48,585 nucleotides of DNA from Catajapyx aquilonaris (GCA_000934665.2 JYFJ02002941.1:1-48585), one strand, 5' to 3'; shown: positions 8,644 to 34,055, counted from the first letter of the stretch. The notes: generated by a model not told the origin, from the sequence alone. Program-made: numbers and translations.

Positions 8644-9310
8644 ACTATTGTACACGTACTGAATTTTTGTATCAAATTAAAGACACTAATATTGACCCAG
8701 ATACGCGTATATTTCGGAGCCACCGCCCGGTCTCTTTATTTCCGAGAATGGTGACCAGGGATTTCCCTTCGATGACTTCAAAGGAAGGCGCAGGCGTGGC
8801 AATGAGAAACATGCGACATGCAGAAAGGAAAGCAAGCCACTGTCCAAAAACCAATAAGTGAAATAAGTGACTTCAAAATGAACAGCTGCATGCCCTTTCC
8901 CATTCTTTCCTTTCCCATTCTTCCCGCCCATCAGTTTGTCTCACGTACTTTTATACGCCATCGCTAGATGGCTATGTGACCTCACTTGGCCTTCGTTCCC
9001 CTCCTCCTGCTTCGAGTGCTTACTAGTCCTGCTGGCTGCTACCAACTGCTACTCAATCTGCCAACAGTCAGAGATTAAAGCAGAAATGCATCAACACCCT
9101 GGGAATTCCTCCCGATGACTTGAAAGCAAGGCGTGGCAAAGTGAGACTTGCGACAAACAAAAAGGAGAGCAAACATATTGTGTAAGCAGTTGTACTAGTA
9201 GTGTGTCTGATTCAGGTCCTTTCGAGTGACCACCACTGTTGCTCCTGTTTATAGGATCGTCGTGGCATCGTCGTTGTACCGAAGTTGGTGTAGAGGTAAG
9301 TGCTGAGGTA
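8641..9310 (+). repeat. Duplicated promoter/5'UTR-exon block of the paired MATH-BTB genes (copies at ~16357-16640 and partial ~22520-22590)
   Basis: Shared TACACGTACTGAATTTTTGT, GTCTC(T/C)TTATTTCCGAGA, GATGACTTCAAAG and GGATCGTCGT...AG|GTAAGTGCTGAG (donors at 9296 and 16626). Confidence 0.75.
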
Positions 9311-10385: not shown

Positions 10386-11389
10386 TTCCAGATTAGAGAA
10401 GGCAAACCGCTTATTCTAGGATTTAACACCTGACAAAGTCCTGCAGTTTTCATTTGAATGACGCAACTTATATTATATGGATCACAATTTTTCGTACTCC
10501 AGACTACAACTACATCATATCTACAGAGAATTTCTCATTATATCTGTTAATATTGTTGGTTAACATTGTTGCAGACAATATACCCTGATAATAATCTTTG
10601 GGTCGGTGTGCCGGGTTGCACCAGCAATGAAGATTTTATGGGAGATTATTTTTATCGATGGTATTAATCATTGGTGAGTATGCAAACGTCAGCGTTAGCA
10701 GCAAGGAGGAAACCTTAGCCATTCATAGAGCATGGCTCAACCTGCCATGAAAATATGCTGCACATTCAAAAATGAAATGTAAATGTAGAGAATAATGATC
10801 TTGTTCAAAATTATTTGCGTTGTTTATGCATGAAAAATACGGTAGGCCTATACAGTAGGCTAATGTGCACAGACAACTACTTTCCTAACACATTCCATAT
10901 AACATAGTTTAACTCACGGAGCCATCATTATTTTCTTTAGATGGCACCTATTGAGGCGCCTTGAGGGGAGACAGAGAATGACTGGGTGGGAGGTGGGAGA
11001 TGGGCAAGTGGAAAAGGTCGGCTTTGCAAAGAATGTTTCGTGTGGCCTCTGGGGTAAACCATTGCTTTCCCCACCTGTCCCCTAAATTATTGTGCAGTTG
11101 TCATGCAATAACAGTGACTGTCAATTATCCATGCAGAAAAATAGCATTTGAAATAGCTGATGAAACTAATAAGGTGAAGAGTACTTTTAATCATGCAGGG
11201 ATGTCCGCACCAAAGTAAAACTGCGGCAGAGACCCAGAGACTGTTTCCATAAGCTGTGCCTAAACTAGAACTCGAATGCCACACACCAGTATACATTAAT
11301 GTTCCACACATCCCTAATAAACCACTACACTCTCTTGAGAGTTATGAGCCTCCAACTGTTCGTCAATTCCACATTGAAACCAATTCCTT

Positions 11390-11575
11390 CGATTCTGAAT
11401 TAGACTCGATTCGATTCCGAATTGGACTCGAGTCCGAATTGGACTCGATTCCGAATTGGACTCGAGTCCGAATTGGACTCGAGTCCGAATTGGATTCACG
11501 TCCGAATTGTTGGACTCGATTCCGAATTGGATTCGACTCCTTCAATTCCGATTTGGACTCAATTCCGAATTGAGA
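11390..11575. repeat. Tandem 17-bp minisatellite GAATTGGACTCGA(G/T)TCC, about 10 copies
   Basis: Directly visible. The unit contains the 12-bp palindrome GGACTCGAGTCC, and there are no unique spacers. Confidence 0.9.
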
Positions 11576-12499: not shown

Positions 12500-12677
12500 A
12501 CATGTGAGCTCGTTTACCTTGGTTAGCTCTTCGCAACCCTGCAATTCCTGCTAATTTATTTAAAAATCATAACATTGTCCGAATATTAAATTTTCACATA
12601 GACATTAAAACGGCTCGTATGGTTATTCACTGTTCATCAATCGCCTAATACGTAATTTTCACTCGTATTTTTATAGA

Positions 12678-15392
12678 ATGATGGAAGTTGCTGCCCATAG
12701 GGGATGCTCTGTGAGATATGTGCAGACACAGACGTTACGCTTTGTTTGGACCATCGAAGACTTTCAAGAAAAGATGTCGAATGAGCGGCAGGGCAGCACT
12801 GAGAAGGGAATAAGTCTGACATCCCCAGTTCAACGAGTCGCCTTTCAAACTCAAAGTGTCGTATTCAGATTGAAAGCTCGTTTTCCCTGCCTAAGAAATG
12901 GTGGATATCTGGAGCACGACAGCCTCTCATTATACCTCGACTTGGACCGTGATGACTATAGCCCAGAGGAGAGCCCAGAGCATTTCGACCTTCATTTCCA
13001 CCTCTCTGTGACAATCATAAGCTTAAGCGGCCACCATCACACCAAGGAACAAGATCTTCCTCCAGTTGAGTACTTTGTACGTGATACAACAACAATGCCA
13101 TCTTCCGACTTCATCGCCATGAATGAATTGATGTCACGGAGGGTTGACCTGATTCCAAATGACACAATGACCATCATCTGCCAAGGGACACTTTTCCTAG
13201 ATCTCAGACGGTTAAAAATCCTTGAACTCAATTTCATGAGCAATTTTGAAGGATTATGGCAGTCCTGCACTGGTAGCGATGCTGTTCTGGTAGCTCAAGG
13301 GAAGGAGTTCCAGGTGCACAGGGTGGTCCTCCAGGCCAGAAGCCCTGTGTTTGAAGACATGCTCAACCAAAACTCCACTGAGAAGAGGACAGGAAGGGTC
13401 GTCATCGAAGACATAGATCCACCAATTGTGGAAGCCATGATACGGTTCATCTACACCGATGAGGAACCATCTAACCTTCCAGAGATAGCCATCGACCTGA
13501 TAGTGGCTGCGAGGAAGTACAGCTTGGAAAGACTCCAGAACATGTGCGAGCGCCATCTGGCCAGCATCCTCAGCCTGGACAACATAATGCTTTTCCTGGA
13601 TTTATCAATCCGCCATAGTTTCCTTCGACTGAAAAGAGCCTGCTCCACATTTGCTGTGCTCAATTACTCCGCACTGAGGAAAGTTCCGTACTGGGAAAGT
13701 ACCACGGCCCAGGAGTATCCGGATGCTTTGTTGGAGTGCATCATGCTGATGATGGGGGAGAGCAATATAGACACCCATGCAGATAGAAACAGGTGAGTGA
13801 AGGTGCTATGCCCATGTTGGAATATATTATCTTAGGTGTCAAGACGAGGTGAGGGACAATGATGGGATTAATTTTCTTCACTTATTATTTTGGGCATAAC
13901 TAGACAACTAGTCATATACATTACTTGACTGCCCGGCTTCCAACGAAGGACTATTTGGCAGAATTTTTGCATGGGCACTTTTAATAGTTAAGTATTATTA
14001 TTTATTACCCCTTTACTTATAGGTACATACCTATATCTCGGGGGAGGAGTTGCCCCAGCAGTTAAGTATTAGCTCCCAATATTAGGTTTCTCTTGCCCAT
14101 CCTTTTTATCCTGCAAAGAGGATCTGGCCTGCACACAGTGCACAAAGGTTATTCTGTCACTGACATGAGATGCCAATTGTTCCAATGGGCCATTGTTAAT
14201 TAACGGTCGAAGCTCACATTCATTGTTCAGAAGATTAGTCATTTTATACTGAATTTTTATTTGCATTTTTAGAACGATTGACGAAGAGGATTCTTTGGTG
14301 CGATACGAGCAGAGAGAGAAATTCGCATTGGTTTGGAAAATTAAACACTTCAAGGAGAAGTTGTCCAATCATCGGCAGGGGAGAAATACGAAGGAAAACA
14401 CTCTGACGTCCCCGGTTCACCAGGTCACCTTTGGAACTCATGCAATAAGATGTCACTTGAAAGCGAAGATTTATAGTTATTCCAAAAATTATGTCAATAT
14501 GGATTATAAGAGGTTCAGTCTGTCCCTCTACTACTACCTTGATGATGAAGCCCACGATGTGACTTCTCACTGCTGCTCAGTGACAATCAAAAGTGCAAGC
14601 GGTCGTGACTACACCAAGCACCTGACTGCTGATGAAGGTTTTCACACTGCAAATAACTTCGGACGGGCATGGGAAAGTGACCGATTTATCTCCATGATTG
14701 AACTAAAGTCGACAAGGGGTGACCTGCTTCCAAATGACACAATGACCATCGTCTGCGAAGGGGAATTTGGCATGGATGTCAGAGTGTTAAAAATCCACGA
14801 GCCCGATTTTAGGAGCCATTTTGAAGGAATATTTCAGTCTGGTTCGGGTAGTGATGCTGTTCTGGTAGCTGAAGGGAAGGAGTTCCTGGTGCACAGGGTG
14901 GTCCTTCAGGCCAGAAGCCCAGTGTTTGAAGCCATGTTCAACCACGACACCACTGAGAAGAGGACAGGAAGGGTCGTCATTGAAGACATGGATCCGCCAG
15001 TTGTGGAAGCCATTATACGGTTCATCTACACCGATGAGGAACCTCCTAACCTTCCAGAGATAGCCCCCGATCTGATGGTGGCTGCAGGCAGGTATGGACT
15101 GGAGAGACTCCAGAACATGTGCGAGAATCAACTGGCCAAATCAATCAACTTGGATAACATCATGTTTCTCCTGAATATATCAGCCTGCTACAGTTGTCCT
15201 GGACTGAAAAGGGCCTGCTGCACATTCGCTAAGCTCAATTCCAAAGAAATGAGGAAGGCTTCCTATTGGGGAAAGAACTTGGTCCGGGAGTATCCGGATG
15301 CCGTGATGGAGCTGTTAGAGTGCATGAAGATTACACCTGACCTTCATTATCCTACACCATCATTACACCTTCATCATCCTAATTTGGTTTGA
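12678..15392 (+). CDS. Tandem MATH-BTB-MATH-BTB protein (pair 1), exons 12678-13792 and 14273-15392, 744 aa; unspliced A module 12678-13796 gives 372 aa
   Basis: Two full MATH-BTB modules. A ends AAC AG|GTGAGT and B begins TTTTTAG|A ACG ATT GAC in matching phase 2. B has no start ATG. Domain calls are high confidence; the splice join is inferred. Confidence 0.82.
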
Positions 15393-15919
15393 AGTTAAAT
15401 TTGTATCCATTTCATACACTTGTATTTTCCATAACTTTGTAAAATGCGTATAACCTTGCATGGGAAAGGTTTGCAATTCGTAAGATTTTGAATAATGTTC
15501 CTCCAATTTTTGCATTAAGAAAAATGTCATGTATTTCAATCTCCTATTGCATTCCCATCAAATCAATGCGATATTCTTAAGAGCATTTCAAATCATAGTC
15601 CACTGTGTCTGAATACTCAGATGTACGATAATAATTATGGTATTAAAGTTCCTTTTCTGGTTCTCATTTTGTGCATTTCTGCGACCATTTCAGTTTGACC
15701 AGTCACTTTTTTTTTCTTGTTACAGTCTGAAGACAAGTACTCATGATCACAATAATCAGCAGTGAATCTCAACATAGGTCTACTGTATACTGGTGCAAAT
15801 GAACCCAGACAGTATTTTGGGGTCCTCGCAACTCGAAGTTAACTTAAATTTGTAATTATTGCTTCAATATTATTCAAATTGAAATTTCCGTAATTTATTA
15901 GGATCTGACATATATAGCA

Positions 15920-15968
15920 TCTATACTTTAATCTCAGTGGGTTTGTGCAACACCATAGTAGTTAAAAC

Positions 15969-16053
<85 letters not shown>

Positions 16054-16322
16054 GGTTTGAACTCTGAGCCACGTGACCCACTGTCAGAGCCATCTCACCG
16101 GTACCGTATTTCACACAGAGGGCGGGAGGGTGGGCGTGTGGAAGGGATTTTGCGAATTTATTGTTGTTGGATCCATGGGACTCATCAGTCCAAAGCGATT
16201 TTAAACAATATTGTCTGCACCAGCGCAGGCCGCAGAAAAAAGGGAGCGAAGCGAGTGACTTTCTAGGCCTGCGCCGTATAAAAATGCAAGCGAAGCAAGG
16301 GGTTTGCTACGCGGTTTGCTAG
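15920..16322 (+). mobile_element. Candidate non-autonomous Helitron-like element
   Basis: A|TCTATACT at the 5' side, internal (AAT)n, GCGAAGC motifs, inverted repeat GCGCAGGCC/GGCCTGCGC, short hairpin AGCAA..TTGCT, then CTAG|T. The 5' boundary is uncertain. Confidence 0.4.
15970..16053. repeat. (AAT)n microsatellite, about 28 units
   Basis: Perfect trinucleotide run. Confidence 0.98.
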
Positions 16323-17608
16323 TACAACCGAGTACAACTAAAGTCTTGCCAAAGTCTTAAACTATAGTAGCTACACGTACTGAATTTTTGTGTTAAGACA
16401 CTTAAATTGATGATGATATTGGGAGCCATCGCATCGGTCTCCTTATTTCCGAGACTGGTGGCCATGAAATTCACCACGGTTCGATGACTTCAAAGCAAAG
16501 CGAGGCATGTGACATACAGAAGAATTTGTGCAAGCAGTGCACGTGGGTGCTCGTGGTCTTACGACCACTGCGGCTTTTATTAAGCGGCTTGAAAGGATCG
16601 TCGTTGTGTCGACGTGGGTGTCCAGGTAAGTGCTGAGCTTTATTCAGTTAAATTTGCAAGATGCGGGTTGCGTTATACATTTTACATGGGTGTGGCACCG
16701 TATGGTGCTCAATTTTTATGAAGCAGCAGGGGGTTTTAGCACTGGTTTTAGTCTGGAGGATCCACCAATATTGGCATAATAATGGACGTCCTTTAATTTT
16801 CACTACTTTAAAAAATTATTACTCCCTACTAACCTACTTATTAGATCTTGCACTTATCTAAGTTAATTTTCCATCGTCCACTTCACGTGCAGTGCCTATT
16901 GAACAATGTTGGCAGGCAATGTTATGATTCCAACTTTTTTAAAAAAAATTGTATCACCTTAATAATAATTGCGCCGAAAAAAAAGCGTGGAGCATATTTT
17001 AAATTCCCTGATTGATTAACTTGTTTGAGTAAGTTTTAAACATTTCCATGTGGCCCAAGGTTATTTTTTTTTAATCCTGGGGTAGTGCTTTCACCCCCAA
17101 ATGGGGGTATATCACACAGACCTTCATTTTTGAACTATTATACAATTGGAACCTATTATAGTTGAAGCGCCCGGGCCCACGGGCAGGATGACAGGAGGGG
17201 ATGTGTCCAAGGTTAATTAAAAGCTATGAGCTTCCTTGTGGGCGTGTTTGTGTGCTTAGCACAACCACCTTTTGCAACCTTGCAATTCCTCCTAATAATA
17301 AAAAAAATGTTTTGTAAAACAGGTAACTCTTTTGAACTGGCCTTCTAGACAGCACTATTTCGTGACACGGTGAAAATATTTTTATGGGCAATTATATTGG
17401 CTAAAAGACTGACTGGTAGACTGGAACATCAGAAAATAAAGAGTTATAGCGTATAATATGTAGACTGTTCACATGCCTATATGCTAAGACACTTTGAAAT
17501 GAGAGTCCGATTATTGCGAATTTCAAATGTTCACATTTTAAATGAAGTGGTGGTTATTCACCGTTTATCAATCGCCTAAAACGCGTAATTTTGTACTTAT
17601 ATAGAACT

Positions 17609-20600
17609 ATGGAAGTTGCTGCCAGCAGGAATTCATCTGTGAGATATACGCAGGCACAGAAATTAAACTTTGTTTGGACCATCAAACACTTCCTAGAGAA
17701 GGTGGTGTCGAATGAGCAGCAGGACAGCAATGATAATGAAATAATTCTGACATCCCCAGTTAAACAAGTCGATTTTGAAACTCGCACAATCGCTTTCAGA
17801 TTGGAAGCTCATATGCCCTTGATGAGAAATGGTGGCTATGCAGAGAATGACAGTCTCTCATTATGCATCGTCTTGGACTCGGATGACCACGACCCAGAAG
17901 AGATGAAATTCCACGTCTCAGCGATTATCAGAAGCGCAAGCGGCCACTACACCACCGATCGCAAACTCATTTTTCCACATAGGTACGGTGTAGATTATGG
18001 ACCGCCATTGGCATGGAAACCTGACACATTCATCTCCATGAGACAACTGATGTCGTATAGAGATGATCTGCTTCAAAACGATCCAGTGACCATCATCTGT
18101 CGAGGGACAATTTATTTGGATCTCAGATGGATAAAAATCATTGAACCCAATTTTATGAGCAATTTTGAAGGAATATGGCTGTCTGGTAGTGGTAGCGACG
18201 CTGTTCTGGTAGCTGAAGGGAAGGAGTTCCTGGTGCACAGGGTGGTCCTCCAGGCCCGAAGCCCTGTGTTTGAAGCCATGTTCAACAACGACACCACTGA
18301 GAAGAGGACAGGAAGGGTCGTCATCGAAGACATGGATCCGCCACTTTTGGAAACCATGATACGGTTCATCTACACCGATGAGGAACCATCTAACCTTCCA
18401 GAGATAGGCCTAGCCGCCGATCTTATGGTGGCTGCAGGCAGGTACGGCCTGGAGAGACTTCAGAGCATGTGCGAGTGTTACCTGGCCAGCACTCTCAACT
18501 TGGATAATGTAATGCCCCTCCTGAAGATATCAATCAGCCACAGTTGCCATCGACTGAAAAGGGATTGCTGCACATTCGTAAAACTCAACCATTCATCACT
18601 GAGGAAGGATCCACACTGGGAGAGAGCAGTGTCCCAGGAGTATCAGCATGCTTTGAAGGAATTATTGGAGTACATGCTGGGACAGCACACAATCGACACC
18701 GATTCAGATGGAAAGAGGTGAGTGACGGTGGGAATAGAGATAAGAAAATGAGGTGAGTATAACAATAGGACTAATCTCTTCACACATATTTAGTACAAAT
18801 AAATTGTCCTATGCAATACACGACTGCTGTCCCCAAAGGTCAATTTGTTTTTCTGCTATAAGCCAGAGACATACAGCAGGTTAGGACTGTAGCATTTTGT
18901 CCCCGCCTGCTACTACTAAAGCTGATGATCTCTGCGATGAAAATAATTAATTTTGTTAATTTCAATGCAACCATTAATGCAGCAGGATTAAAAGAAGAAA
19001 GTCCTCGAATATGAATTATGTTTGCTTTCCTCTGCTAATAAAATATGGCGAGAAGTCGCGAGAATACTAACAGGTTCGGACAGAGGCGTACAAAATAATA
19101 GTATGTTGTTGCAATTTTTAAAAAAAAAAAATACACTCCGCACTGTCTGAAAAAGTATATGCAGCATTCAATATACTGTATTATAAATGTAACTATACAG
19201 TATATGTTAATATACTGCATGACAGGGTGATCCAAAATACTTTTTCTACTAAATTCACTATTTTAAAAGTTTACAAAGCTGCTTATTATGATTTTAGCAG
19301 TCCATTTGCATAAGTACTGTTAACAGTTACCAAACGTATTATCTACAAATATTAGGTTGCTTGTAGCTACTAACTTGTACCATTCAAAGCATGCAAGCGG
19401 GTTCTGGCGTGCGGGGTCTGTCACTGAATGGAGTGGAGATGCCAATTATTGGTCCAATTCGTTACTCGGAAACACTTTGTAGTTCAGATTTTGAATGTCC
19501 GATTCAGCTCGGCCTATAATAATAGCAGATAATACTTTTAAAAGGCAACTCTGCATAGTAACTGCTAAAAATAAGCAGCTCAGTTACAACAGTTAAGCAT
19601 TACTCGGACAAGTGTTTCGGATCAATTTGTATCGGCCGTCATGAGAAAAAGTCTACTATAATCACGTTCACGTGATTTGCCAGCCTTGTTTATTTGCTTT
19701 TACAGAACGATGGAAGTTGCTGGGGAAGAGGATTCTTTGGTGCGATACGAGCAGAGAGAGAAGTTCCACTTCGTTTGGACAATTGAACACTTCGAAGAGA
19801 AGTTGTCCAATCATCGGCAGGACAGCAATGAGGAGGAAAACACTCTGACGTCCCCTGTTCACCAAGTCGCCTTTGGAACTGATGGAATGAGGTTTCACTT
19901 GAAAGCGACGATTCCGTGCTTAAAAAATGATGCCTCTTTGGAACGTCAGAACTTCGGCCTGTCCCTCTACTACGAACTTGATGTTCAAGCCCACGATGTG
20001 ACTTCTCATTCCTGCTCAGCAGTGACAATCAAAAGTGCAAGCGGTTGTGACTACACCAGGTGCGTGACTACTGATCAAGAAGTTCTCACTGCAAGTAACT
20101 CGGGACTGGTATGGGAATATAAAGCATTTATCTCCATGAATGAATTGATGTCACGGAGGGATGACCTGCTGCCAAAAGACACAATGACCATCATCTGCCA
20201 AGGGAAATTTGACGTGAATGTCAGATTGTTAAAAAGCATTGAACCCAATTTCATGAGAAATTTTTCAAGAATAATGAAGTCAGGTAGTGGTAGCGACGCT
20301 GTTCTGGTAGCTCAAGAGAAGGGGTTCCTGGTGCACAGGGTGGTCCTCCAGGCCCGAAGCCCTGTGTTTGAAGCCATGTTCAACCACGACACCACTGAGA
20401 AGAGGACAGGAAGGGTTGTCATTGAAGACATGGATCCGCCAGTTCTGCAAGCCATGATACTGTTCATCTACACAGACCAGAGACCACGTAACCTTCCAGA
20501 GATAGCCACCAATCTGATGGTGGCTGCAAGCAGGTATGGACTGGAGAGACTCCAGAACATGTGCGAGAATCAACTGGCCAAATCAATCAACTTGGAAAAC

Positions 20601-20801
20601 ATCATGTCTCTCCTGAATATATCAGCCTGTTACAGTTGCCCCAAACTGAAAAGAGCCTGCTGCACATTTGCGACTCTCAATTCCAACGAAATGAGGAAGG
20701 CTTCCTATTGGGGAAGGAACTTGGTCCAGGAGTATCCGGATGCCGTGATGGAGCTGTTAGATATCATGAAGATTACCCCTAACACTGGTGCTTCATCATA
20801 G
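17609..20801 (+). CDS. Tandem MATH-BTB-MATH-BTB protein (pair 2), exons 17609-18717 and 19706-20801, 734 aa
   Basis: A ends AAG AG|GTGAGT (TGA 18719-18721). B acceptor TTTTACAG|A ACG ATG is in phase 2. Both modules are intact; B also has its own ATG at 19710. Confidence 0.8.
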
Positions 20802-21043
20802 TGTAACGTGTGAGAGGATAGCAAGAAAAAGACTGCCGGGTCGAGTGTGGTTTTAAAACTTTAAGTCCCCCACCCTACCACCCCGTCCCCTATGCTTATC
20901 CTGGAGGAAAGGTACGACAATTGCCATGTCGGGATTTTCTTTTTCCGTGTGGATAATTATAGTGTATTCCGGGTTCCCTTTGTGTCTGGCAAATCTTCTT
21001 CAAAATCCCCCAGAAACCCCATGAAGTCCTTTTCTTGACAGAC
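20801..21043. mobile_element. Small decayed TIR insertion at the stop codon of pair-2 module B
   Basis: Paralog 3' ends read TCATCAT..TAATT..GTTTGAAGTT; here ~240 bp is inserted in that string. Subterminal CAAGAAAAAGACT / AGTCCTTTTCTTG are inverted, with (A)TA on both sides. Confidence 0.55.
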
Positions 21044-21550
21044 TATAATTCAGTTTGAAGTTGTTGTTTTTTTCATTTTATAATGTTGTACTTTCCAGAA
21101 ATTTGTAAGCTTGTGTATGATAAACTGATTCTTAATATTTTCAATAATCTTCCTCCATATTTTGCATTCAAAACCATGACGTCAATGCCCATGTAAGCTC
21201 AGGTAAGAGCATGGTTCGTCATTGGAAAAGAATCGACTCGAAAGGAATGAGTGCTATTTTGAGTGGAGAAAAGGGTGGTTATAATTTCCACACTAAAGCG
21301 GAAAATAGCCCTTCTGGGCCCCAGACCACGCAAATTGAAACATGATCGTTATACTGAACAGTTATCAGGAAAAAATGTCCTTGAAAAACAAACATCCCTT
21401 ATCATAATTATGCGCATAAAATATGCTGAGCTTAGCCTTCCCAAATTGTGCGGCACAAAATCGCTTCTACGCTATGGCAAAAAATTTGGGTTCGTGTGCA
21501 GGACAAATATTGTGGCCCATTTCAAGTGACGTTGGTATGATACCATTCCG

Positions 21551-21800
21551 GTGGGGAACGCCAACGAGGTATAAATAGGGTACAGTCAAAAATAGGGTCC
21601 CCATCTTTGATTCGCGCGTGTTCTTGCCGTGTAGTTGCCATGGCCGCCAAAACCATCAAAGATGGCGGACCCTATTTTTGCCTGTACCCTATTTATACCT
21701 CGTTGGCGTTCCCCACACTTCAAGATGGCCGCCAGCCTTGGCAACGGCCCCAAACAGAGAGATCCAAAGTTTGTGCCTCTTATGTAGTATATGCTCCCTG
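21551..21800. mobile_element. Partial second copy of the 6071-6511 foldback element
   Basis: Near-identical arm ending CCTCTTATGTAGTATATGCTCCCTG, the reverse complement of the 6071 terminus. Confidence 0.85.
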
Positions 21801-22722
21801 ACAGTAGTAAGAAACATGAAAGGACCTTTTAATAATTTCGTCATGTTAAAATAGTGACAATCGTAATTGCCTAAGCCATAAACGATAAATAAGCTCAAAT
21901 ATGCGGTATATCACAACCAGAACGTCATTCATTGATTCATCCCGGAAATGGCTTGTCTTAGTACTTGGAATGGCCTTGTCCTTGATAGACTGAGGTCAAC
22001 ATTGTTAAGTATAGGCCTAATGACTCAAAATGGTAAGTTATACGAGTTAGTGTATTTTTCTAAATATAAATCATAAGGAATTCCGTCTCCATCAATCGTT
22101 ATTAATCGTCGGCCCTATGTCATATCCTCACTATTAACAGCACAGGTCATCTTGAGCTTGCCCATGTTGCCAAGCCTGTGCCATCGTCAGCACATTCACC
22201 AAGGTCATACTTTGCTTCACACGATCATGATGGCCCAGCTCAGCGCCTGCAAAAGCATTGCAGCCATTAAGTTCAAAGTTCATCGAGCTGACACAAAGAC
22301 AAGCTCCAATTCCGGTGTAATGAGATCATGAAGTATTTTGTCACAGATTACGTGAACTACTTGACTGACCTTCCGACGCCAGTGATCGGCCTGGATGGCA
22401 ACAACCGTGAATATGTCCCACCAAAACTATCTGCATATAATTATGAAAAAGGAACCCCGAACCACCAGAAACCATTTTTAAAAAATAATGGAAACCTGTG
22501 CAAAATTAACCATGATTTATTAGGAGCCATCCGTCTCCTTATTTCCGAGATTGGGGTGTCCAGGGAATGACTTTGATGACCTCAAAGTTCAAAGCAATGG
22601 CGATGACTGCAAATAGCATCAGAAAATACCTGTCATGTTGTATAGAATATTGACAGTGCGTCAGTGCCTATAAATAAGACCCGCTGAAATTTGATTATGA
22701 TTATTCTGAATTTCAAATCTTA

Positions 22723-23368
22723 TTAACCCCTTGAGCCCCAGCTATACCCGCCATCTTATAGCTTTCCGCTTACGAGTACTCTGAAGATACGGACAAGATA
22801 TTTTGCACAAAATAACAGCTACATACTTACCCGATCAGGGAAAACACTATGAATGTGTCTGGAACAATTTTCCTCGTCTGGAAGTCTCTAAATTAATCAG
22901 TTTCCAAAAAATATCGCTGTAAAACTCGAAATTCGAGTACTTCCATGATTTAATAATTATGAAACACGTTAAAATACACGGAATAACAATATTGAGAGTA
23001 GTGCCAGACGAATTTGCTGAAATCGTCGTCCTAGTTGTGAGAAATTAAATAAATTATTTCTGATATGCACCTTCCATGTTACTTCGGAAATCTCCCCAAA
23101 TAATTTATTTCTGGCGAAGTACGATGATTTCAGCAACTTCGTCTGGCAATGTTCTCAAGGTTAATATTCCATACATTTTAACGTATTTCATAATGAAATC
23201 GGCATCACAGTTGACCGGCAGTTCTCGAATTTCGTGTTTTTTTTACAGCGGTCTTTTCGGAATTTAATTTGGGAACTTCTAGAGGAGGAAAATGGTCCCA
23301 AACACATTCATATCATTTTCAAGGAACATGTAAGTACGATATATAGCTGTGGCCTAAAGAGTGTGTAA
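22723..23368. mobile_element. Old ~645 bp foldback MITE with TTAA-CCC terminus (piggyBac-like)
   Basis: Left TTAACCCCTTGAGCCCCAGCTATA, decayed right TATAGCTGTGGCCTAAAGAG. Internal arms are inverted (TGCCAGACGAATTTGCTGAAATC / GATTTCAGCAACTTCGTCTGGCA; TATGAATGTGT / ACACATTCATA). Confidence 0.7.
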
Positions 23369-23859
23369 CGGTAAATAGTCGTGGGGTTCATTCAGTGTGG
23401 GTATGCACATATCATCATAATGTTAAACTACTGATGCAGCGTATGCTATAGATAGATAGATAGCTCGCCAAAAGGACTTACAAAACAATGTCACACAGTT
23501 GCAGTTTTTTAACTAGGCCTACTAGCAAAAAATTATACAAAGAGTAAACCTTAATTGTTGGCGGATATTAACGTTCCTTTTCTGGTTCTCATTTGTTGCA
23601 TTTCTGTTTGACCAGTCTCATTTTTTTCTTTGTCACAGTCTGAAGGTTCTCTTAGTATTAGTCCTTAGTGGTGCAAGTAGAAGCTACAATTTTCAATTTG
23701 ATTTAAAATTGGAGGGTGTTATGCCTTTAGTGATATCTCACATAGAATTGCCCTATGTAGTATCATGTGGATTTGAATGAAAAGGTATGTGCTTCACCTT
23801 CTAATTAGACCACTTTGTTTTTTGTTTTTTTCTTTCCGACAATACCTTTGGTGCAAGAT

Positions 23860-24175
23860 TGGCAAAGAGAGTATATATCACACTTCATTATTTTGAGAGA
23901 GCAAGACCTGACAGGAACTATTGCATCTTGCACCTATATGCCTCATTACATTTTCTGAATTAAATTACAATAAATTATTGGTGGAGGAGAACATGAAGGT
24001 GCTTTCTCAGAACCAGCAACTCTGGCTGAATGGTGAGCTGATGGAAGACGGGAGGACACTCGCAGACTACGTACAACCTGAACCCAAGCAGGCACCTCCA
24101 GGAAACCAACCCACCAATCATGATCATTCTGGCTATACGAAACGAGCAAGAAGAGTATTTTGTATTCCTTTATAA
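23860..24175 (+). pseudogene. Degenerate ubiquitin-like (UBL) domain exon
   Basis: ITFSEL..LLVEENMKVLSQNQQLWLNGELMEDGRTLADY matches the UBL pattern (ubiquitin [20 protein letters not shown]). There is no in-frame start ATG for the N-terminal strands, which appear frameshifted, and no C-terminal GG. Confidence 0.65.
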
Positions 24176-25301
24176 TGAAGAAAATATTATTCGGCATTTA
24201 ATAACTGAGGCCATTGAATCTGCATGAGCTACGTTTAGTTTTGATTTCATGAATACCTTGAGAGAATAAGTAGTAGTCACTTATGATATTTTCATATTAT
24301 TTTCCAGTCTGAAGGTAAGAAGTAGGCCTACATATTTTCATTAATCACCAGTGAATCATAATGCACTGTAATGTAACAATGAATGCATATTTTGTGATCC
24401 GCGCACTTCAACATTCACTGGAGTATTATTGCTTAAATGTCGTTCAAATTCAATGTCGAAATTAATTTTGGATGTGACATATTGTGCTCTAGAAAAATCT
24501 GACTCATTTGCCAAGGAAACCTTGCTGTGAAGCTGTAATGATTTTTTACATTGTGTTCAGCCTTGTAATGGCAAGTAGTAGCCTACTAGTAAGCGAGATC
24601 CAGGACCCGGTCTGAAAGAGGTCAACCTTTGAAACTAGGATACCAGTAGTTAGGGTCACATCATCCGCAGATATATGGGCACAGTTTTGACCTTGAAACA
24701 GCTCTCTTAACGATGGTTTCTTGTGAATAAATATGATTGAATGGCAATAGGAATGGTTTCTGCAAAAGAAATTGCATATAATTTATTGCAATAGTGACGT
24801 ATGTACCGGAATATTCTCTAACACTTACTGATAAGGCGGTAGATATATCTGGATATCTTTCCTTGCGATTCCGGTGGCCATCGGAACCTGGTGTAGCAAA
24901 CACTGATTGTCACTTTGATAATTCTGGCCTGCCAATGTGATGGTCCCCTGATTTCACGTATAAAAAGTGTGGGAACGGAGTGGCAACAAACTGAGCTGTG
25001 CAAGGGACGAAGGCGGTTTGGTTGGCCGCTTACTCCGAAGTTTAACTCGAAGGTGTGATGCCCCACGTGAGTATTTTCTGTCTGTCTTTGCGTTTTTCTA
25101 AGAATACGTAATAATATGCTGCTCATACTTGAGCCTTAAACCTATATATATATAAGTGACATGCAATCGAGTAGGCACGAAAAAATGAGAGATAAGGGAG
25201 GCGGCAAATCTTCATATCTCAAAGTATTGTGATTCATTCTTAGTAATTCATTGCTTCTCTGTTGCCTTATCCATTAACTTCAATTGAATTTGTAGGGAAC
25301 C

Positions 25302-27792
25302 ATGGAAGTTGCTGCCAGTGTGGCTTCCTCTGCGTCATATGTGCAGCAACAGGGATTTTTATTTCGTTGGACCATCGAACACTTCCAAGAGATGTTGTGG
25401 AGTGAGCAGCACCAGAGCACTGAGCCGAAAGAGATTCTGACATCCGAAGTTCAGCAAGTCGTCTTTGAATCTCAAGGAATCGAATACCAATTGAAAGCTC
25501 GTTTTCCCTGCATCAGATATGGTGGAATATATTGGGACGAAGACAGGCTCTCCATGCGTTTCGACTTCGACCTTGATGACAATGGGGCAGAAGTGACTTG
25601 TAATTTTGTGTCGGTGACAATCAAAAGCTCAATGGGCCAGGACTACACCAGGGCCATACGCAATGGTCCAATTTCGGAAGTGGTAGATATTGGAGCAGGG
25701 GAATTTACCGATATTATCGACATGAAAAAATTGATGTCGCGGAGGGATGACCTGCTGCCAAACGACAAACTGACCCTCATCTGCCAAGGGGATTTTGAAA
25801 TGGATCTCAGACAGTTCAAAATCCCTGAACCTAACTTATTGAGCAATTTTGAAGGAATATTGCAGTCTGGTAGTGGTAGCGACGCTGTTCTGGTAGCTCA
25901 AAGGAAGGAGTTCCTGGTCCACAGGGTGGTCCTTCAGGCCAAAAGCCCTGTGTTTGAAGCCATGTTCAACCACGACACCACAGAGAAGAGGACAGGAAGG
26001 GTCGTAATCGAAGACATAGATGCGCCAGTTGTGGAAGCAATGATACGGTTCATCTACACTGACGAGGAACCTCCCAACCTGCCAGAGGTAGCCATCGATC
26101 TGATGGTGGCTGCAGGCATGTATGACCTGGAGAGACTCCAGAGCATGTGCGAGAGACAACTGGCCATCACTCTCAACTTGGGTAACGTCATGTCCCTCCT
26201 GGATTTATCAATCCACCACAGTTGCCCCAGACTGAAAGGAGCTTGCTCCACATTTGCTGTGCTCAACTACCCTGCACTGAGGAATGCTCCACACTGGGAG
26301 AGGACCATGGCCCAGGAGTACCCGGATGCTTTGGACGAAGTCTTGGAGTGCATGCTAGGGCCACACAAAATTGACACCCAAGAAGATGGAGAGAGGTGAG
26401 TGTTGGTGCTGGGCTCCAGTGGGAATTAAGGTGGGAATTCGTATAGGTAACAAGGTGAGGTGAGTGATAAGTTTAATGTCAATGGGACTAATCTCTTGGT
26501 CAATACTCGACTCCCCCCAAAGGTCAATAATTACGATGTCCAGATTAGGAAGTTTGCATTTTGCTTTATCGATATGAGAGAAATCTTTCATTTTTCCGTC
26601 AATTAGTACACTATAGTTCCATAATATTATTGAGGGGGGAGGGTAGGAGAGATGCTGAATTTTTGGATTGAATTTTAATAAACATTTTAGAATAAGTCAC
26701 CTCATGCTATAGGATTTTTTTCTTTGCATTTTTAGAATGATGGTTTCTGCCAAAAAGGATTCTTTGGTGCGATATGAGCAGAGACAGAAATTACGCTTCG
26801 TTTGGACAATTGATCACTTCAAAGAAAAGATGTCGAATGGTCAGAAGGGCAAAAAGCTCACAACTCTGACATCCCCAGTTTACCTATTCACCTTTGGAAC
26901 TAATGTAATGAAGTTTCACTTGAAAGCTAAGATTCCTTGTGACAGCAACGATGGCTTTCAGGAATATGAGAGCTTCGGCCTGTACCTCTACTACGACCCT
27001 GATGATCAAGGCCACGATTTGACTCCTCACTCCTGCTCAGTGGCAATGAAAAGCGCAAATTACTTTGACATCAACCAGCACATGCCTCCTGGTCAAGTTT
27101 TTCATGCTGCCAGTGACTCTGTACCGGCATGGCGATTTTACTCACTTAACTCCATGAAACAACTGATGTCATCGAGGAGGAAGGACATGTTTCCGAACAA
27201 CACAATGACCATCACTTGCCAAGGGAAATTTGGCATGGATCTCAGAAAGTTCCAAGTCAACGAGTCCAAATTCATGATCAATTTTGAAGGGATACTGCAG
27301 TCTGGTAGTGGTAGCGACGCTGTTCTGGTAGCTCAAAGGAAGGAGTTTCGGGTGCACAGGGTGGTCCTCCAGGCCAGAAGCCCTGTGTTTGAAGACATGC
27401 TCAACCACGACACCACTGAGAAGAAGACAGGAAGGGTCGTCATTGAAAACATAGATCCTCCAGTTGTGGAAGCCATGATACGGTTCATCTACACCGATGA
27501 GGAACCCTCTAACCTGCCAGAGATAGCCACCGATCTGATGGTGGCGGCAGGTAGGTATGGCCTGGAGAGACTCCAGAGCATGTGCGAGCGTCACTTGGCC
27601 AGCACCATCAACATGGGTAACATCGTGAATCTTCTGGATTTATCAATCCGTAACAATTGCCCTCGACTGAGAAGGGCCTGCAGCACATTCGCAAAGCTAA
27701 ATTCCAGCAAAATGAAGAATGCTTCCAATTGGGGAAGGAAGATGGTCCAGAAGTTTCCACATGCCATGGAGGAACTGTTATGGACTACATGA
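25302..27792 (+). CDS. Tandem MATH-BTB-MATH-BTB protein (pair 3), exons 25302-26395 and 26736-27792, 716 aa
   Basis: A ends GAG AG|GTGAGT and B acceptor TTTTTAG|A ATG is in phase 2. Putative 5'UTR donor at 25067. The last ~10 codons of B are frameshifted relative to paralogs. Confidence 0.8.
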
Positions 27793-29462
27793 AGATTAAG
27801 CCTGATGCTGATTACCCATCATCGTAATTCGGCTCGAAGTTATATTTTGCTCCATTTCATGCTGTTGTACTGTAGGCTACTCTCCCGAATTTTGGTGTGG
27901 GAAAACCTAGTTCTTAATATTATAATAATTAATGTTACGCCATTTTTCTGTATTCAAAAAGAAAGCACAGCCTTTACTTTAATCGTTTTCTTGAATCCTT
28001 TATCAAAATGAGATTTTTTTACAGCAACTGAAATCAAAACCGATTCTGCCTTAATACACAGATGAAGATGATGCCCTCTATGTTGTTCTGTTGTGCTGTT
28101 GTTGTTCATTATTGACAAGTTTTTCATTCTCGATCAGTTTCATTTTTACTATCCAGGTTGAAGGTTAGGTATACGTATATTCTCACTGATCATCAGTAAA
28201 TAATCTCAATGCACTGTAGCCTATACTGTATACCAATGAAAGCGGAGTCCTCGCAATTTGGCCCTGACTTACATAAAAGTGCACTCTGCTCATAGAAAAA
28301 TTGCCTTGGAAGGGACCTGTTTGATCACTGATTGTGACTTACTTAGATAATTCTGGCCAGCCAATGTGAGGGACCACTGATTTCACGTTCAAAAAGTCTG
28401 GGAAAGGAGTGGAAACAGACTGAGACGTGCAACGGACGAAGTCGGTTTGTTGGTCGAGTCAGCTGACTCCTGCTCCGTTTGTCTCTATATAGGTGAGTGT
28501 TGCTTTTGTGTGTATTGTACTTCAGAGAGATAAAGGTATAGCCTATACTATAATAGGCTACAAAAAGTTTAGGCGAGAACGGACCCGATTCTTCAATTCA
28601 TCCGGGATTGATGGAATCTGAAGTACAGGTCTGTGTTTGTCTGATGGATTTTTACTCCTTTCCTTAATCTTTCGCCCTCTTCCGTGTTTAATAATACTGC
28701 AGAACTATTACATTGATGCACATGTGAACGGAATCAATGTATCAACCACAGATAGAAAAGTAAATAGTAATATGCTGCGCCATATACTTTAGCCTTGCAC
28801 CCAGCAGATCAGTTGCATTGACAAATAACTTAATCGAGCAGGGAAGAAAAGACGAGATAAAGGTATATGAGCAAGGGACAAACAGATAAACACACACATA
28901 TACACACTCACGCATAACATTGGGCCTGTGCTGTGGATTGCATCATGTCAGCATGAACGAAAGAGTCAGGTCTGGTCTGTCCAAAAATTTTGGACCAGAT
29001 ACTACTGTACTCTCCGATGAATTCGATGCGACTGTCCAAAAAAGAATGCCAATTAGCACCTAGGCTATACAAGCCTATACATACATTTGGTCACGGCAGA
29101 TTAGTCACAATCTACATTATTGATTGAAAGGTTAAACTTAAAATTTATTATATACCTTTCTAGAGCCTCCAGTTGCAATTACTGTACGTATAAAGTGTAA
29201 AATTAAATATTTGAAATGTGGTTTTTCGCAATACCCGATTTTTAAAAACCTGAGTTTCGTGATTTCGCCGACCATTATTAGCAACACCTTCCACAGAAAA
29301 GTATAGCGCTGAAAGGAAAAAAAATCCGACCTTTAAAAGTGACACTATTATCGTGCTGAATATTCAATCTTCATATTTTCATGATCATAATTATGATGAA
29401 ATCGTAGTAAATTAATGGTAATTTATTTTATGCGTAATTTTCTCTTGTATTTAAATAAAACT

Positions 29463-32021
29463 ATGGAGGTTGCTCCCAGTGGGATTTCATCTGCGACGTA
29501 TATGCAGAAACATGAATTTTTCTTTCGTTGGACCATTGAACACTTCCAACAGAAGATGTTGAATGAGCAGCAGGACAACAATGCGCAGGAAATTATTCTG
29601 ACATCCCCATTTCACCAAGTCGCCTTTGAAGCCCATCCAATCACATGTCAATTGAAAGCTCGTTTCCCCTGTATCAGATATGGTGAATTTCGTAAGGATG
29701 ACTGCCTCTCCCTGTGCCTATACTTCAACCTTCATGACCGTGGCCAAGATGTGACTTGTAATTCAGCTCATATGGCCACGACTACGAATACACCAGGGGT
29801 CGTGAACCAGTAGGCAATGGTCCAATTTCCGACATTGTAGGTGTTGGAGGATGGGGATTTTCCGACTTCATCACCATGACACAATTACTGTTACGGAGGG
29901 CTCACCTGCTTCCAAATGACACCATGACCATCATCTGCAAAGGGGAATTTGGCATGGATCTCAGACATATTAAAATCTCTAAATCCATTTTCATTCGCAA
30001 TTTTGAAGGGATATTGCAGTCTGGAATGGGTAGCGACGCTGTTCTGGTATCTCAAGGGAAGGAGTTCCAGGTGCACAGGGTGGTCGTCCTTCAGGCCAGA
30101 TTCCCTGTGTTTGAAGCCATGTTCAAACACGACACCACAGAGAAGAGGACAGGAAGGGTCGTCATTGATGAAGACATAGATCAACAAGTTGTGGAAGCCA
30201 TGATACGGTTCATCTACACAGACGAGGAACCACCCAACATGTCAGAGATAGCCACAGATCTGATAGTGGCTGCGGGAAGGTATGGCCTGGAGAGACTCCA
30301 GAACATGTGCGAGCATCACCTGGCCAACACCCTCAACAAGGATACTGTAATGCCTCTCCTAGATTTATCAATCCGCCACAGATTCCCCAGGCTGAAAGGG
30401 GCTTGTTCCACATTTGCTGTGCTCAACTACCGTGCAATGAGGAAGGCTCCCTACTGGGAGAAGACCATGTTCCTGGAGTATCCGGATGCTTTGGACGAAG
30501 TGTTGGAGTGCATGCTGGGACAGGGTAAAATTGACACCCATGCAGATATAAACAGGTGAGTGAAGATGCTGGACCCAAGTGGGAATAGAGATAAGAAGAT
30601 AGATGAGTGATAAGGTTATTCACAATGGCACTAATCACTTCACTCATAATAATATATTATGCACATCGTTTGCATTTCAAGCAAATACCGTACTTAACTG
30701 CCCCCAGAGGTCAATTTGTCTGACTTTATATAATGTTTTCTGTCGCAGGCCATCCTATATTATCGACTGGAACTAATGATAAGCAATGATTAAGCAACTC
30801 TGAGCATTTTCCTGTCAATTAGTTTTTCCATCTTTGAGGCCCAGGAAAGATTGTGTATTTCGTGAGAGTCATTGTATTTTTTTCATAGTTCAGAAGTCAC
30901 TTAAATTTTTTGTACCTATTTATAGAGGAACGATAGTTTCTGCCGAAAAGGATGCCGTGGTGCGATACGAGCAGAGACAGAGATTCCACTTCGTTTGGAC
31001 AATTGAAGACTTTGAAAGGACGATATCGAATGACCGGAAGGACGACAAGAATCGGCACAAAATTCTGACATCCCCGGTTCACCAAGTCGCCTTTGGACCA
31101 CATGTAGTTAGGTTTTACTTGAAAGCTCAGATTCCATGTTTCAAACATGGTGGCTATCAGGGGCAGGAGACCTTCCGCCTGTACCTTTACTACCAGCCTG
31201 ACGACCAAGGCCACGATGTGACTTCTTACTACGGCTCAATGGTAATAAAAAGCGCAAGTCGCCGCGACATCATCCAGTACGTGCCTCACGGTAGAATTTT
31301 TTACGCCTCAAATGACTGTGTAGCGGCATGGGGATGTTACTCATTCATGTTGATGAGTGAATTGATGGCATATAAAGGTGACCTGCTGCCGAACGACACA
31401 ATGACCATTGTATGCCAAGGGGAATTAGGCATGGATCTCAGAAAGTTCCAAGTCAACGAGTCCAATTTAATGAGCCGTTTCGAAGGGATACTGCAGTCTG
31501 GTAGTGGTAGCGACGCTGTTCTGGTAGCTCAAGAGAAGGAGTTCCGTGTGCACAGGGTGGTCCTTCAGGCCCGAAGCCCTGTGTTTGAAGCCATGTTCAA
31601 CCACGACACCACTGAGAAGAGGACAGGAAGGGTCGTTATCGAAGACATGGATCCGCCAGTTGTGGAAGCCATGATACGCTTCATCTACACAGACAAGGAA
31701 CCCTCTAACCTCCCAGAGGTGGCCACCGATCTGATGGTGGCTGCAGGCAGGTACAACCTGGAGAGACTCCAGAGCATGTGCGAGAGAGAATTGGCCAGTA
31801 CCCTCAACGTGGAGAACTGCATGATTCTCCTGAGTTTAGCAATCTGCAACAGTTGCCCTCAACTGAAAAGAGCCTGCTGCACATTCGCAATGCTCAATTT
31901 CAAGGAAATGAGGAAGGCTTCCTACTGGGGAAGGAATCTGATCCAGGAGTTCCCAGATGCCCTGATGGAGCTGTTAGACTTCATGAAGATTAGGCCTACT
32001 GCTGATTCTTCTTCATCATAA
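29463..32021 (+). pseudogene. Tandem MATH-BTB-MATH-BTB (pair 4), probable pseudogene: module A 29463-30555 disrupted, module B 30926-32021 intact
   Basis: A frameshifting deletion near 29765 in MATH gives a stop at 29813, while homology continues in another frame (GHDYEYTRG..GNGPISDIV). The upstream acceptor is mutated (TATAGAACTATG to AATAAAAACTATG). The AG|GTGAGT donor and in-phase B acceptor TTTATAG|A GGA ACG ATA remain; B lacks a start ATG. Confidence 0.8.
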
Positions 32022-34055
32022 TCATGTCATGTTAAATATTTTCCTCCATACTACAGTATCATGTACTTTCCCGCACTTCGTACAATACGAACATAAGTAC
32101 TTAAAACAGAATATTATTATTTTAATTATTATTATTAGCAATTATATGTAATTACATTCTCACTTATGTTATATCAGCAGTGAATCTCAATGCACTATAG
32201 GCCTGCTCTACCACTACCACTGAATGCATATTTTGGGGTACACGTGATTCGACCTTCACTTAATTATTGCTTTTAAATATATCACACTCAATTTTCCCAA
32301 ATCTTTCAGATCTTATGTGTTGTGATCTAGAAAATTGTCACTCATTCGCTCCAGAAATATGAGGTGAACCCCACTGCTCATTTAGTCATGTAGCATGGCC
32401 CCTATTCCTTACTGAAATTGCCGAAATCGTGTATAGAGCAAGGTCACATGAGAAATTACAAGAAATCCCTAGCCCGAGAAGGTAAGGCGTTGCCCAAAAA
32501 TCTGTCATATCTTTAGCGGTCACGGTCAATGCGGTAAAGGCCAGAAGGATGTCCCATTACCGCATTCATGTGAATCACAAAAAATAAAAGTACTCCTCTA
32601 AGTAAGAGTCTAGGTAAATCAATAATTTACCAACACAAAAAGTCACTGAATTACATTATCTGACGTCTTGTTCTCATGGAATCTTTTTCATTGTTTGGGC
32701 AGCAGCCATAAGCATAGTTCTGCTCTAAGTTATATTACATCAGAAAGTAACTAGAAAATTCCATCCAATGACATTAATTTTGACCTCGTTTTGAAAAATC
32801 TGTTACAAAATAGGCAGGAATGAAAATTATTCCAAATTTACATTGGCCATAAATCATACACAATTAGCATCTACCCCAAATAGTACTGTACACTTTCACA
32901 CAAAACTATATCATAAGTCAAACAGTAATGGCGGGGTGCTAGCCTTGGTCTGGGATTTGGGTACTTTGTACACAAATAGGGCTCAACCATACATATAAAC
33001 CTACATTCCACCACTTTTTGGCACCAAGATGTCATTCCTCGATTAATTATCGGGGGTTTAAAAGTCACTCGCGAATTGGTGGGGAAAGCAGGGGCATTGC
33101 TTATTGTCCATTACATACATAAATACTTTTATTCACGCTTCGGACACACAACTAGGGCACATTTACATAATTACATTTGGGTGGAGGGTGACCTCATCCT
33201 CTGTTTTATTATAGTGTATTTCTACACATCTAACTTACATTTTGAAGGAGTCCCTGCAACTCGAACTCGAATAGTGATTATAATCACTCATTGAGTATGT
33301 TGTGATCAACCACTTTAATAATTAATAGAAGCCTTTAAAACTGAAGTGTGTAAACGGCACATAATACTGTAATGTGAAGATATAATTTCCATGAGAAAAA
33401 TACAACTCTTGAGATTATATCATTAAGAAAGGCGGGACATGAAAGGAAGAGCCAAAAAATCCCACACCACATGCAATCTAACTATTATGGAATTCGGACT
33501 TCCAAAGCCTATAAGGCCCTGCAGCCCCTCACTTCCAATTTATTAAAACATAGATTGAACAATGCAACAATGACATGCCATCAGGTGACACCCCCCAATT
33601 AGGTCTCCTCAAGAGATATCGGGGGCCGATTCTCTCCGTTGTAGCCAATCCTTCCTGGCGTTCAGCAACAACAGCACCCCATCTGCCACCAGGCAGAAGG
33701 CACAACCTATTAAATTCAGCCATCAGGTCCATCACTAAGGCCCTCTTGGTGCAGCACCATCCGATGGCGCACACAGCAAGGTGAGTCTGGCAGGACCGGA
33801 CCGACGTCCCACGGTCACCTGTGGCGCTTGCTTGATCTCCTGGTCGGCGAGCTCACATATAATCTAACTGGATCACAATATGAGTAAAGAAGGAAGTGGA
33901 CAAAAATTACAGAAATTCAACCATGACCAGTTGTACCATTTTGAACAGGTGCAGTCATGGGTGACAAAACTGAAGTAATACCTATTCTAGAACATCCTTT
34001 CACAGGACACGTAAAATTAGATGCCAGCACAGAATGTAAACATGAAGCTGAGCAT

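Follow-up and report, generated by a model that had tools for sequence, protein, structure and literature searches.

Paired MATH-BTB modules in a tandem array of Catajapyx aquilonaris as putative genes for two-module proteins

Analysis of a stretch of 48,585 nucleotides (nt) from the animal Catajapyx aquilonaris (GCA_000934665.2 JYFJ02002941.1:1-48585; G+C content of about 42%; the whole stretch is called the window in the following) revealed 13 MATH-BTB modules, five of which are unpaired genes (S1-S5) and eight of which are arranged as four A-B pairs spanning positions 12678-32021. Each pair probably forms one transcription unit in which MATH-BTB-BACK is encoded twice, with A spliced to B in units 1-3. 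A preliminary description of this DNA had taken all four pairs for single two-module genes, with products of 716-744 amino acids (aa). Pairs 1-3 are indeed best explained as two exons of one gene, with spliced lengths by coordinate arithmetic of 744, 734, and 716 codons, respectively, while pair 4 has to be removed from this list, its A module being frameshifted. The modules and the spacers between them, i.e., the proposed introns, are arranged as follows (in all motifs, a slash marks the exon-intron boundary):

12677..13792, plus strand: A1 coding exon, MATH-BTB-BACK; ATG at 12678; phase-2 donor CAG/GTGAGT
13793..14272, plus strand: proposed A1-B1 intron, 480 nt; no AATAAA or ATTAAA
14273..15392, plus strand: B1 coding exon, MATH-BTB-BACK; ATT in place of ATG; stop TGA at 15390-15392
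17605..18717, plus strand: A2 coding exon; ATG at 17609; donor GAG/GTGAGT
18718..19705, plus strand: proposed A2-B2 intron, 988 nt; second GAG/GTGAGT; three polyA-type hexamers
19706..20801, plus strand: B2 coding exon; ATG kept at 19710; stop TAG
25296..26395, plus strand: A3 coding exon; ATG at 25302; donor GAG/GTGAGT
26396..26735, plus strand: proposed A3-B3 intron, 340 nt; second GAG/GTGAGT
26736..27792, plus strand: B3 coding exon; ATG ATG kept at 26737; stop TGA
29463..30555, plus strand: A4 module, disabled; ATG at 29463; donor CAG/GTGAGT still intact
30556..30925, plus strand: A4-B4 spacer, 370 nt; no AATAAA or ATTAAA
30926..32021, plus strand: B4 module, continuous open reading frame (ORF), ATA in place of ATG; stop TAA

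All four A ORFs terminate in AG/GTGAGTG, preceded by C or G, with exon ends at 13792, 18717, 26395, and 30555, and the TGA stop codon of each is made up by the first bases of the intron. The preliminary description had already placed donors at these four ends, and our analysis agrees: 8-9 of nine positions fit the consensus MAG/GTRAGT in each of the four, and in a four-way alignment of the pairs the nine donor columns (AGGTGAGTG) are invariant. Against a background column invariance of 55% in the coding sequence ahead of the donor and 52% in spacer columns without gaps, this corresponds to a P of about 0.003-0.005. A GT donor spanning the stop codon was detected neither in any of the five unpaired genes, as had been stated before, nor in any of the four B modules. 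Over the window, AGGTRAGT occurs 12 times versus 2.62 expected on both strands, and all 12 sites lie on the plus strand, namely four at the A ends, one in an intron of an ionotropic-receptor (IR)-type gene, four upstream of S1, A1, A2, and A4, two in spacers 2 and 3, and one, the consensus donor AGGTGAGT at 33779-33786, with no obvious exon that goes with it. Since 3'-end formation tends to be inhibited where a terminal exon contains a strong, unpaired 5' splice site, a consensus donor would be unlikely to persist at the end of a gene that stands alone.

At the other end of the spacers, the B exons open after a T-rich tract and AG at 14273, 19706, 26736, and 30926, also in line with the preliminary description, and donor and acceptor are compatible in all four pairs (phase 2, AG+A giving Arg). 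Of all AGs in spacers 1-3, the B acceptor alone leads into a long phase-2 frame, which is open over at least 350 codons as against at most 49 for every other AG, and in pairs 2 and 3 it also ranks first among the spacer AGs by pyrimidine count. The absence of a start ATG from B1 and B4 was confirmed (ATT and ATA, respectively). In B1, the start was lost by a 9-nt in-frame deletion leaving ATT, and no in-frame ATG was found between the preceding stop codon and the acceptor. With the sister modules B2 and B3 keeping their ATG, the start codon was lost twice independently; it is retained in every A module and every single gene. Despite this loss, the ORFs of B1 and B4 are free of stop codons over 364-372 codons, for which a neutral terminal branch would give a probability of 0.14 in B1 and 0.037 in B4.

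Together with these two ATG losses, it is the distribution of conserved upstream blocks, present ahead of A only and not ahead of B, that favors one unit per pair. The segment 9267-9307 upstream of A1 shares 85% identity with 16597-16637 upstream of A2, both ending in AG/GTAAGT, and 24901-25028 upstream of A3 shares 83% identity with 28326-28456 upstream of A4, both being followed by GTGAGT donors; the A3 copy of the latter block contains the TATA-like box TATAAAAAG. When the paralogues were compared in the same way ahead of the B modules and in the spacers, no conserved promoter-like block was found. The blocks upstream of A may thus be promoters with non-coding 5' exons, for which we propose the following candidates:

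9240..9295 (start approximate), plus strand: candidate non-coding 5' exon of unit 1; donor AG/GTAAGT at 9295/9296; AGGTAAGT match at 9294
16597..16625 (start approximate), plus strand: candidate non-coding 5' exon of unit 2; donor AG/GTAAGT at 16625/16626
24901..25066, plus strand: candidate promoter (TATAAAAAG) and 5' exon of unit 3; donor CAC/GTGAGT near 25066/25067
28326..28492, plus strand: candidate promoter and 5' exon of unit 4; donor TAG/GTGAGT at 28492/28493

A consensus donor is also located upstream of the single gene S1. An origin of the pairs by deletion, with the tail and donor region of A being homologous to the candidate 5' exons, was considered as well and rejected: 20 comparisons gave similarity at the level of the donor motif only and no consistent signal.

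A maximum-likelihood tree built on 12 full modules grouped the A modules as ((A1,A2),(A3,A4)) and the B modules as ((B1,B2),(B3,B4)) with supports of 88-100. The two subtrees are congruent, and therefore the A-B pair was copied as a unit, one ancestral A-B pair having been duplicated three times. Pairwise synonymous divergence (dS) among the copies is 0.19-0.42, and the MATH domains have a pairwise ratio of nonsynonymous to synonymous divergence (dN/dS) of about 1, compared to about 0.3-0.7 for BTB-BACK. Seven of the eight modules are free of stop codons and frameshifts, while the neutral probability of remaining without a stop is 0.03-0.15 per terminal branch, with a product over the eight branches of about 1e-9. 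Branch-specific dN/dS showed no clear contrast for A4, B1, or B4, the counts being too small. Between A and B, the BTB domains are as similar (dS 0.32-0.46) as the A modules are among themselves, and there are pair-specific BTB variants occurring in both halves, e.g., AQRKEF in A3 and B3 (regions e.g. 25860-25900 and 27290-27330), a hint that gene conversion may have acted between both halves of a unit.

Module A4 is a pseudogene and pair 4 a decaying copy. Compared to A3, A4 has suffered a frameshifting deletion of 13 nt near 29760-29780; translation from the ATG at 29463 would come to a stop at 29811-29813, with the remaining module in another frame. Furthermore, the AG of its upstream acceptor is mutated away, and its BTB domain has received two in-frame insertions. 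Pair 4 therefore cannot yield a full two-module chain, whereas both modules are intact in pairs 1-3.

Two features that had been taken as special marks of the pairs turned out to be general. The stop codon embedded in the donor is no special device but the general look of phase-2 introns starting with GTGAG or GTAAG, since any phase-2 intron that begins with GT(A/G)AG brings the stop codon with it. The same is seen in two IR-type genes of the window, in which the intron position is common to both and an exon of each ends in an in-donor stop codon like the A modules (internal exon ends CCTAG/GTAAGC and CCCAG/GTGAGT, resumption at TTTACAG/A and TTCTTACAG/A). A site of this kind is thus employed by a bona fide intron of the region, which counts in favor of its use in the pairs. 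Likewise, the polypyrimidine-AG acceptor is not specific for B. It is also present 1-12 nt upstream of the ATG of A1, A2, A3, and all five singles, so that 12 of the 13 MATH-BTB modules have an acceptor before the start position, the exception being A4. It is thus an ancestral acceptor of an intron in the 5' untranslated region (5'-UTR), inherited throughout the family and not made for B.

From these data, we suggest that a unit would consist of a promoter and a short non-coding 5' exon, an intron, the A exon, an intron of 340-988 nt, and the B exon. B would have originated as a tandem duplicate of a single-coding-exon SPOP-like gene, with its inherited 5'-UTR-intron acceptor retained, downstream of a copy A whose ORF ends exactly at a consensus 5' splice site. 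Transcription from the promoter of A would read through, and A would then be spliced to B in frame. Units 1-3 would each give one chain with two different MATH substrate-binding domains, in which two near-identical BTB-BACK modules may serve Cul3 binding and dimerization; unit 4 would be a decaying copy of this arrangement.

Several observations weigh against such a fusion. All four pairs go back to one ancestral pair and have diverged modestly, which makes the conservation of the splice signals only mildly significant, and a run of at least nine invariant columns within 300 is not rare in itself (at the coding rate, P is about 0.47). Even the disabled A4 has kept an intact donor, and such a site is hence no proof of use. 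In B2 and B3, an ATG directly follows the acceptor, and both could be expressed alone. Polyadenylation (polyA)-type hexamers occur in two of the spacers, with three copies in pair 2 and a single one in pair 3; as a marker, these hexamers are uninformative, none being present within 1 kb after B2 and B3 or in spacers 1 and 4. A second GAG/GTGAGT is located 35-65 nt past the A donor in the alignable part of the spacers of pair 2 (18751-18758) and pair 3 (26458-26465), and could act as an alternative 5' splice site whose use leaves the stop codon of A in the mRNA, or as the donor of a separate 5' exon of B. Finally, dN/dS on the terminal branches is high (0.67-1.14, from small counts), and some copies may be drifting. 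The stronger argument for the fusion is not the conservation of its signals but the ancestral state, with a perfect donor at the last codon of A, a strong acceptor, a compatible phase, and, in spacers 1-3, a unique long continuation.

One alternative, which we regard as unlikely, is that A and B are separate genes. In this case, B would have its own promoter and 5' exon in the spacer, with the second GAG/GTGAGT as a possible donor, or would receive a trans-spliced leader, and the donor at the end of A would either be unused or remove a short intron from the 3' untranslated region, e.g., to the acceptor-like motif CCCCAAAG/GTCAAT. Since the A modules and the singles have the same acceptor ahead of their ATG, the B acceptor alone says nothing about fusion, and the ATG kept in B2 and B3 fits separate expression; B1 and B4, however, are without a start codon, with no in-frame ATG available to B1 from upstream. 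The second donor suits a separate 5' exon in pairs 2 and 3, but it is weaker in pair 1 (about 13853) and lost in pair 4 (about 30600). A conserved ATG before this donor, tried as a start for B, was rejected since it is present in pair 2 only. The motif CCCCAAAG/GTCAAT lies about 110-170 nt into the spacer and can be aligned in all four pairs, in favor of this alternative. The tails that follow it are unrelated, and none of the AGs of spacers 1-3 other than that of B opens a long frame; a short coding terminal exon starting at CCCCAAAG/G was accordingly rejected, the translated tails differing in sequence and length. The polyA-type hexamers of spacers 2 and 3 would suit an end of A within the spacer, while no promoter-like block conserved among paralogues was found there, unlike upstream of A. 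With candidate cis 5' exons carrying consensus donors upstream of S1, A1, A2, and A4, trans-splicing would be unnecessary.

A regulated splice switch, as had been proposed in the preliminary description, would let the use of the A donor compete with intron retention or intronic polyadenylation, giving either A alone or a tethered A-B chain. An unspliced transcript would end translation at the donor and yield a complete A module, the hexamers in spacers 2 and 3 could serve intronic polyadenylation, and the second donor past the stop codon in pairs 2 and 3 would give the A-only frame on a spliced mRNA. We nevertheless consider such a switch improbable: there is no sign of regulation in the sequence, and the stop codon in the donor is a generic outcome of phase 2. 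The spacers can be aligned only around the acceptor and over their first ca. 150 nt, and the latter part is conserved at the neutral level only. An Rfam search of the whole window gave no match, and the aligned first ca. 150 nt thus correspond to no known RNA. A little further down the scale, and very improbable in our estimation, is a three-way choice from one promoter per unit between tethered A-B, A alone (from transcripts ending or left unspliced past A), and B alone, the last by a 5' exon that skips A (in B2 and B3). If true, the locus would generate Cul3 adaptor dimers combinatorially, each with a defined pairing of MATH domains, and the tether would impose a heterodimer that could not be selected by free BTB domains, as these are near-identical.

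Just as little weight is given to the array being made up of largely decaying young duplicates, with signals and frames as relics and nothing selected as a two-module protein: the pseudogene A4 with its perfect donor, the ATG losses in B1 and B4, the dN/dS of about 1 in MATH and of up to 1.14 on terminal branches, and spacer columns invariant nearly as often as coding ones would agree with it, but seven of eight modules are free of stop codons and frameshifts against the neutral expectation given above, BTB-BACK is constrained, and a fast-evolving MATH next to a constrained BTB is the pattern reported for expanded MATH-BTB families in nematodes and grasses.

Returning to the favored reading of one two-module gene per pair, the domain content of the predicted proteins was analyzed next to their possible dimerization. 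BTB (PF00651) was detected in all 12 MATH-BTB segments scanned, C-terminal to MATH, with E values of 8e-19 to 4e-25, and MATH_2 in nine of the 12 at E<=0.01. Among the A and B modules, MATH_2 matched five of eight, in A1, B1, B2, and B4 over the full domain and in A4 at the C-terminal end only; A1 and B1 just reach the Pfam cut-off, and B2 and B4 stay below. Though no MATH match was obtained for A2, A3, and B3 individually, they align with the other modules over the whole domain. The SPOP-type BACK (PF24570) was matched in most modules with 17-23.5 bits, below the cut-off of 27.4. Using phmmer, A2 and B2 each aligned to human SPOP from the C-terminus of MATH through BTB and BACK to about residue 350. 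In the spliced chains, the tail of A and the N-terminus of B would make up a polar, acidic linker of about 20 residues.

SPOP-type adaptors function as BTB dimers, through which two identical MATH domains are presented to Cul3, and the preliminary description had envisaged the A-B chain as a hard-wired pseudo-heterodimer, which is plausible. At positions 186, 190, 193, and 217, which we take to be the BTB dimer contacts of SPOP, A2 and B2 have the hydrophobic residues Phe, Phe, Ile, and Val. A predicted complex of the BTB-BACK parts of A2 and B2 reached a score of 0.35 compared to 0.14 for the best control, a mark that is attained by 51 of 78 solved complexes and two of 108 mismatched pairs; the runs agreed in at least 56% of contacts, and the predicted local distance difference test (pLDDT) of the partner was at least 76. 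This lends weak support to binding of A2 and B2, as SPOP BTB dimers are already solved and the result may only mirror the likeness to them. The BTB domains of A and B are nearly identical, so only the tether, not the interface, would favor A:B over A:A or B:B.

To look for comparable proteins, a profile of the eight modules was searched against 1.84 billion representatives. No close relative was found in the sequence collections searched: the nearest library proteins are low-scoring arthropod sequences, with best single-module scores of about 160 bits, including a Glossina roadkill-like protein and a Tigriopus model, and the best whole-protein score of 361 bits belongs to a protein with six BTB domains. 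Word-indexed protein searches with B1 likewise gave no close relatives but one 995 aa match from Oryza punctata and two grass matches. Scanning of metagenome contigs with the module profile resulted in 20 loci, none of them usable as an orthologous A-B pair (at most about 41% identity for the strongest, up to 50% over very short segments). Since the MATH part is too divergent, our own module profile at 70% coverage gave no two-module hits, and Pfam counts were used instead. Of 51 profile hits of at least 600 aa, 49 carry at least two BTB stretches and 14 at least two MATH_2 and two BTB stretches, two of these 14 having three of each. MATH-BTB-MATH-BTB proteins, for which the preliminary description had suggested a search in related taxa, are hence predicted elsewhere. 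They include about 12 'SPOPL' models of 668-725 aa from the pseudoscorpion Cordylochernes scorpioides, in which the architecture likewise recurs in many paralogues, the RefSeq models XP_065209892.1 of the mealybug Planococcus citri and XP_023246686.1 of the wasp Copidosoma floridanum, and grass proteins. In four of six inspected two-module sequences, the second module has no Met at its start. An AlphaFold2 model of the pseudoscorpion two-module protein P0010, based on a 14-row alignment, showed folded domains with a disordered linker (338-364; mean pLDDT 72.4, predicted template modeling score 0.40) and was uninformative on the intramolecular BTB-BTB arrangement.

Thus, an architecture of two and three MATH-BTB modules is already present in predicted proteomes elsewhere, which provides a precedent for the proposed fusion, and is little studied. 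As these proteins are gene predictions, they could be fusion artefacts of tandem arrays, which has to be counted against the fusion proposed here. Other Cul3 adaptors, LZTR1 and RhoBTB, have two BTB domains in one chain. The predicted chains share with them the two BTB or BTB-BACK modules, but LZTR1 and RhoBTB have one substrate-binding region and two diverged BTB domains, whereas here the whole adaptor would be doubled, with nearly identical BTB domains. Compared to SPOP, Roadkill, and BPM-type Cul3 adaptors, each module has the same order of MATH and BTB, mostly followed by a partial SPOP-type BACK match below the cut-off; the differences are that two complete modules would share one chain and that MATH is very divergent with a dN/dS of about 1. 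BTB typically occurs as a single copy (Stogios et al. 2005, PMC1257465). A 2M2B class of MATH-BTB proteins (Os2M2B1) has been catalogued in rice (PMC4923191), and our literature searches brought up only this rice/Arabidopsis catalogue and no functional study of a two-module MATH-BTB protein. With Os2M2B1 and the Cordylochernes, Planococcus, and Copidosoma models, the predicted chains have the domain order and a similar total length in common, though none of these is a close relative. Read-through 'conjoined' genes are a described class (PMC2953495), which the pairs would resemble as same-strand neighbors joined by read-through with the intergenic part spliced out. Conjoined transcripts are typically minor isoforms of two genes that are independent of each other, whereas here B has lost its start in two of the copies and was duplicated together with A as one unit, which suggests a fixed fusion.

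The remainder of the window contains the unpaired genes of the family and further coding sequences, as follows:

3-1756 and 3169-5299, plus strand: two tandem paralogous IR-type genes with a Lig_chan match
7582-8643: S1, unpaired MATH-BTB gene
34056-35096, minus strand: S2, unpaired MATH-BTB gene
38267-40267, plus strand: ORF of a pogo/Tigger-type DDE transposase with CENP-B_N, HTH_Tnp_Tc5, and DDE_1 domains
41668-42717: S3, unpaired MATH-BTB gene
43405-44491, plus strand: S4, unpaired MATH-BTB gene
45717-46751: S5, unpaired MATH-BTB gene

Gene S4 has a 58-nt phase-2 intron within the MATH domain (43788-43845, CCAG/GTTCGT to TTTTTTAG/G); its two halves are in different frames, yet with this intron S4 is not a frameshifted pseudogene. 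The frame of the pogo/Tigger-type transposase comprises 666 codons and is apparently intact. Intergenic parts of the array revealed dispersed repeat copies (21551-21800 versus 6071-6497, 87% identity, partly inverted), a local cluster of inverted repeats (11389-11572), and a trinucleotide microsatellite (15970-16053). These elements are probably transposon fragments and would explain why the spacers differ in length.

Should the proposed splice remain unused, the locus would be an ordinary, rapidly evolving MATH-BTB tandem array. If it is used, the locus would be a clean natural example of a doubled adaptor, with three intact units, independent losses of the B start, and a decaying unit as internal control, and it would illustrate the capture of a tandem duplicate, equipped with a 5'-UTR intron, by the gene upstream of it. 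By combining two different MATH domains, such a chain would lock in a heterodimer, and recognition of two substrates or two degrons could be required or made possible.

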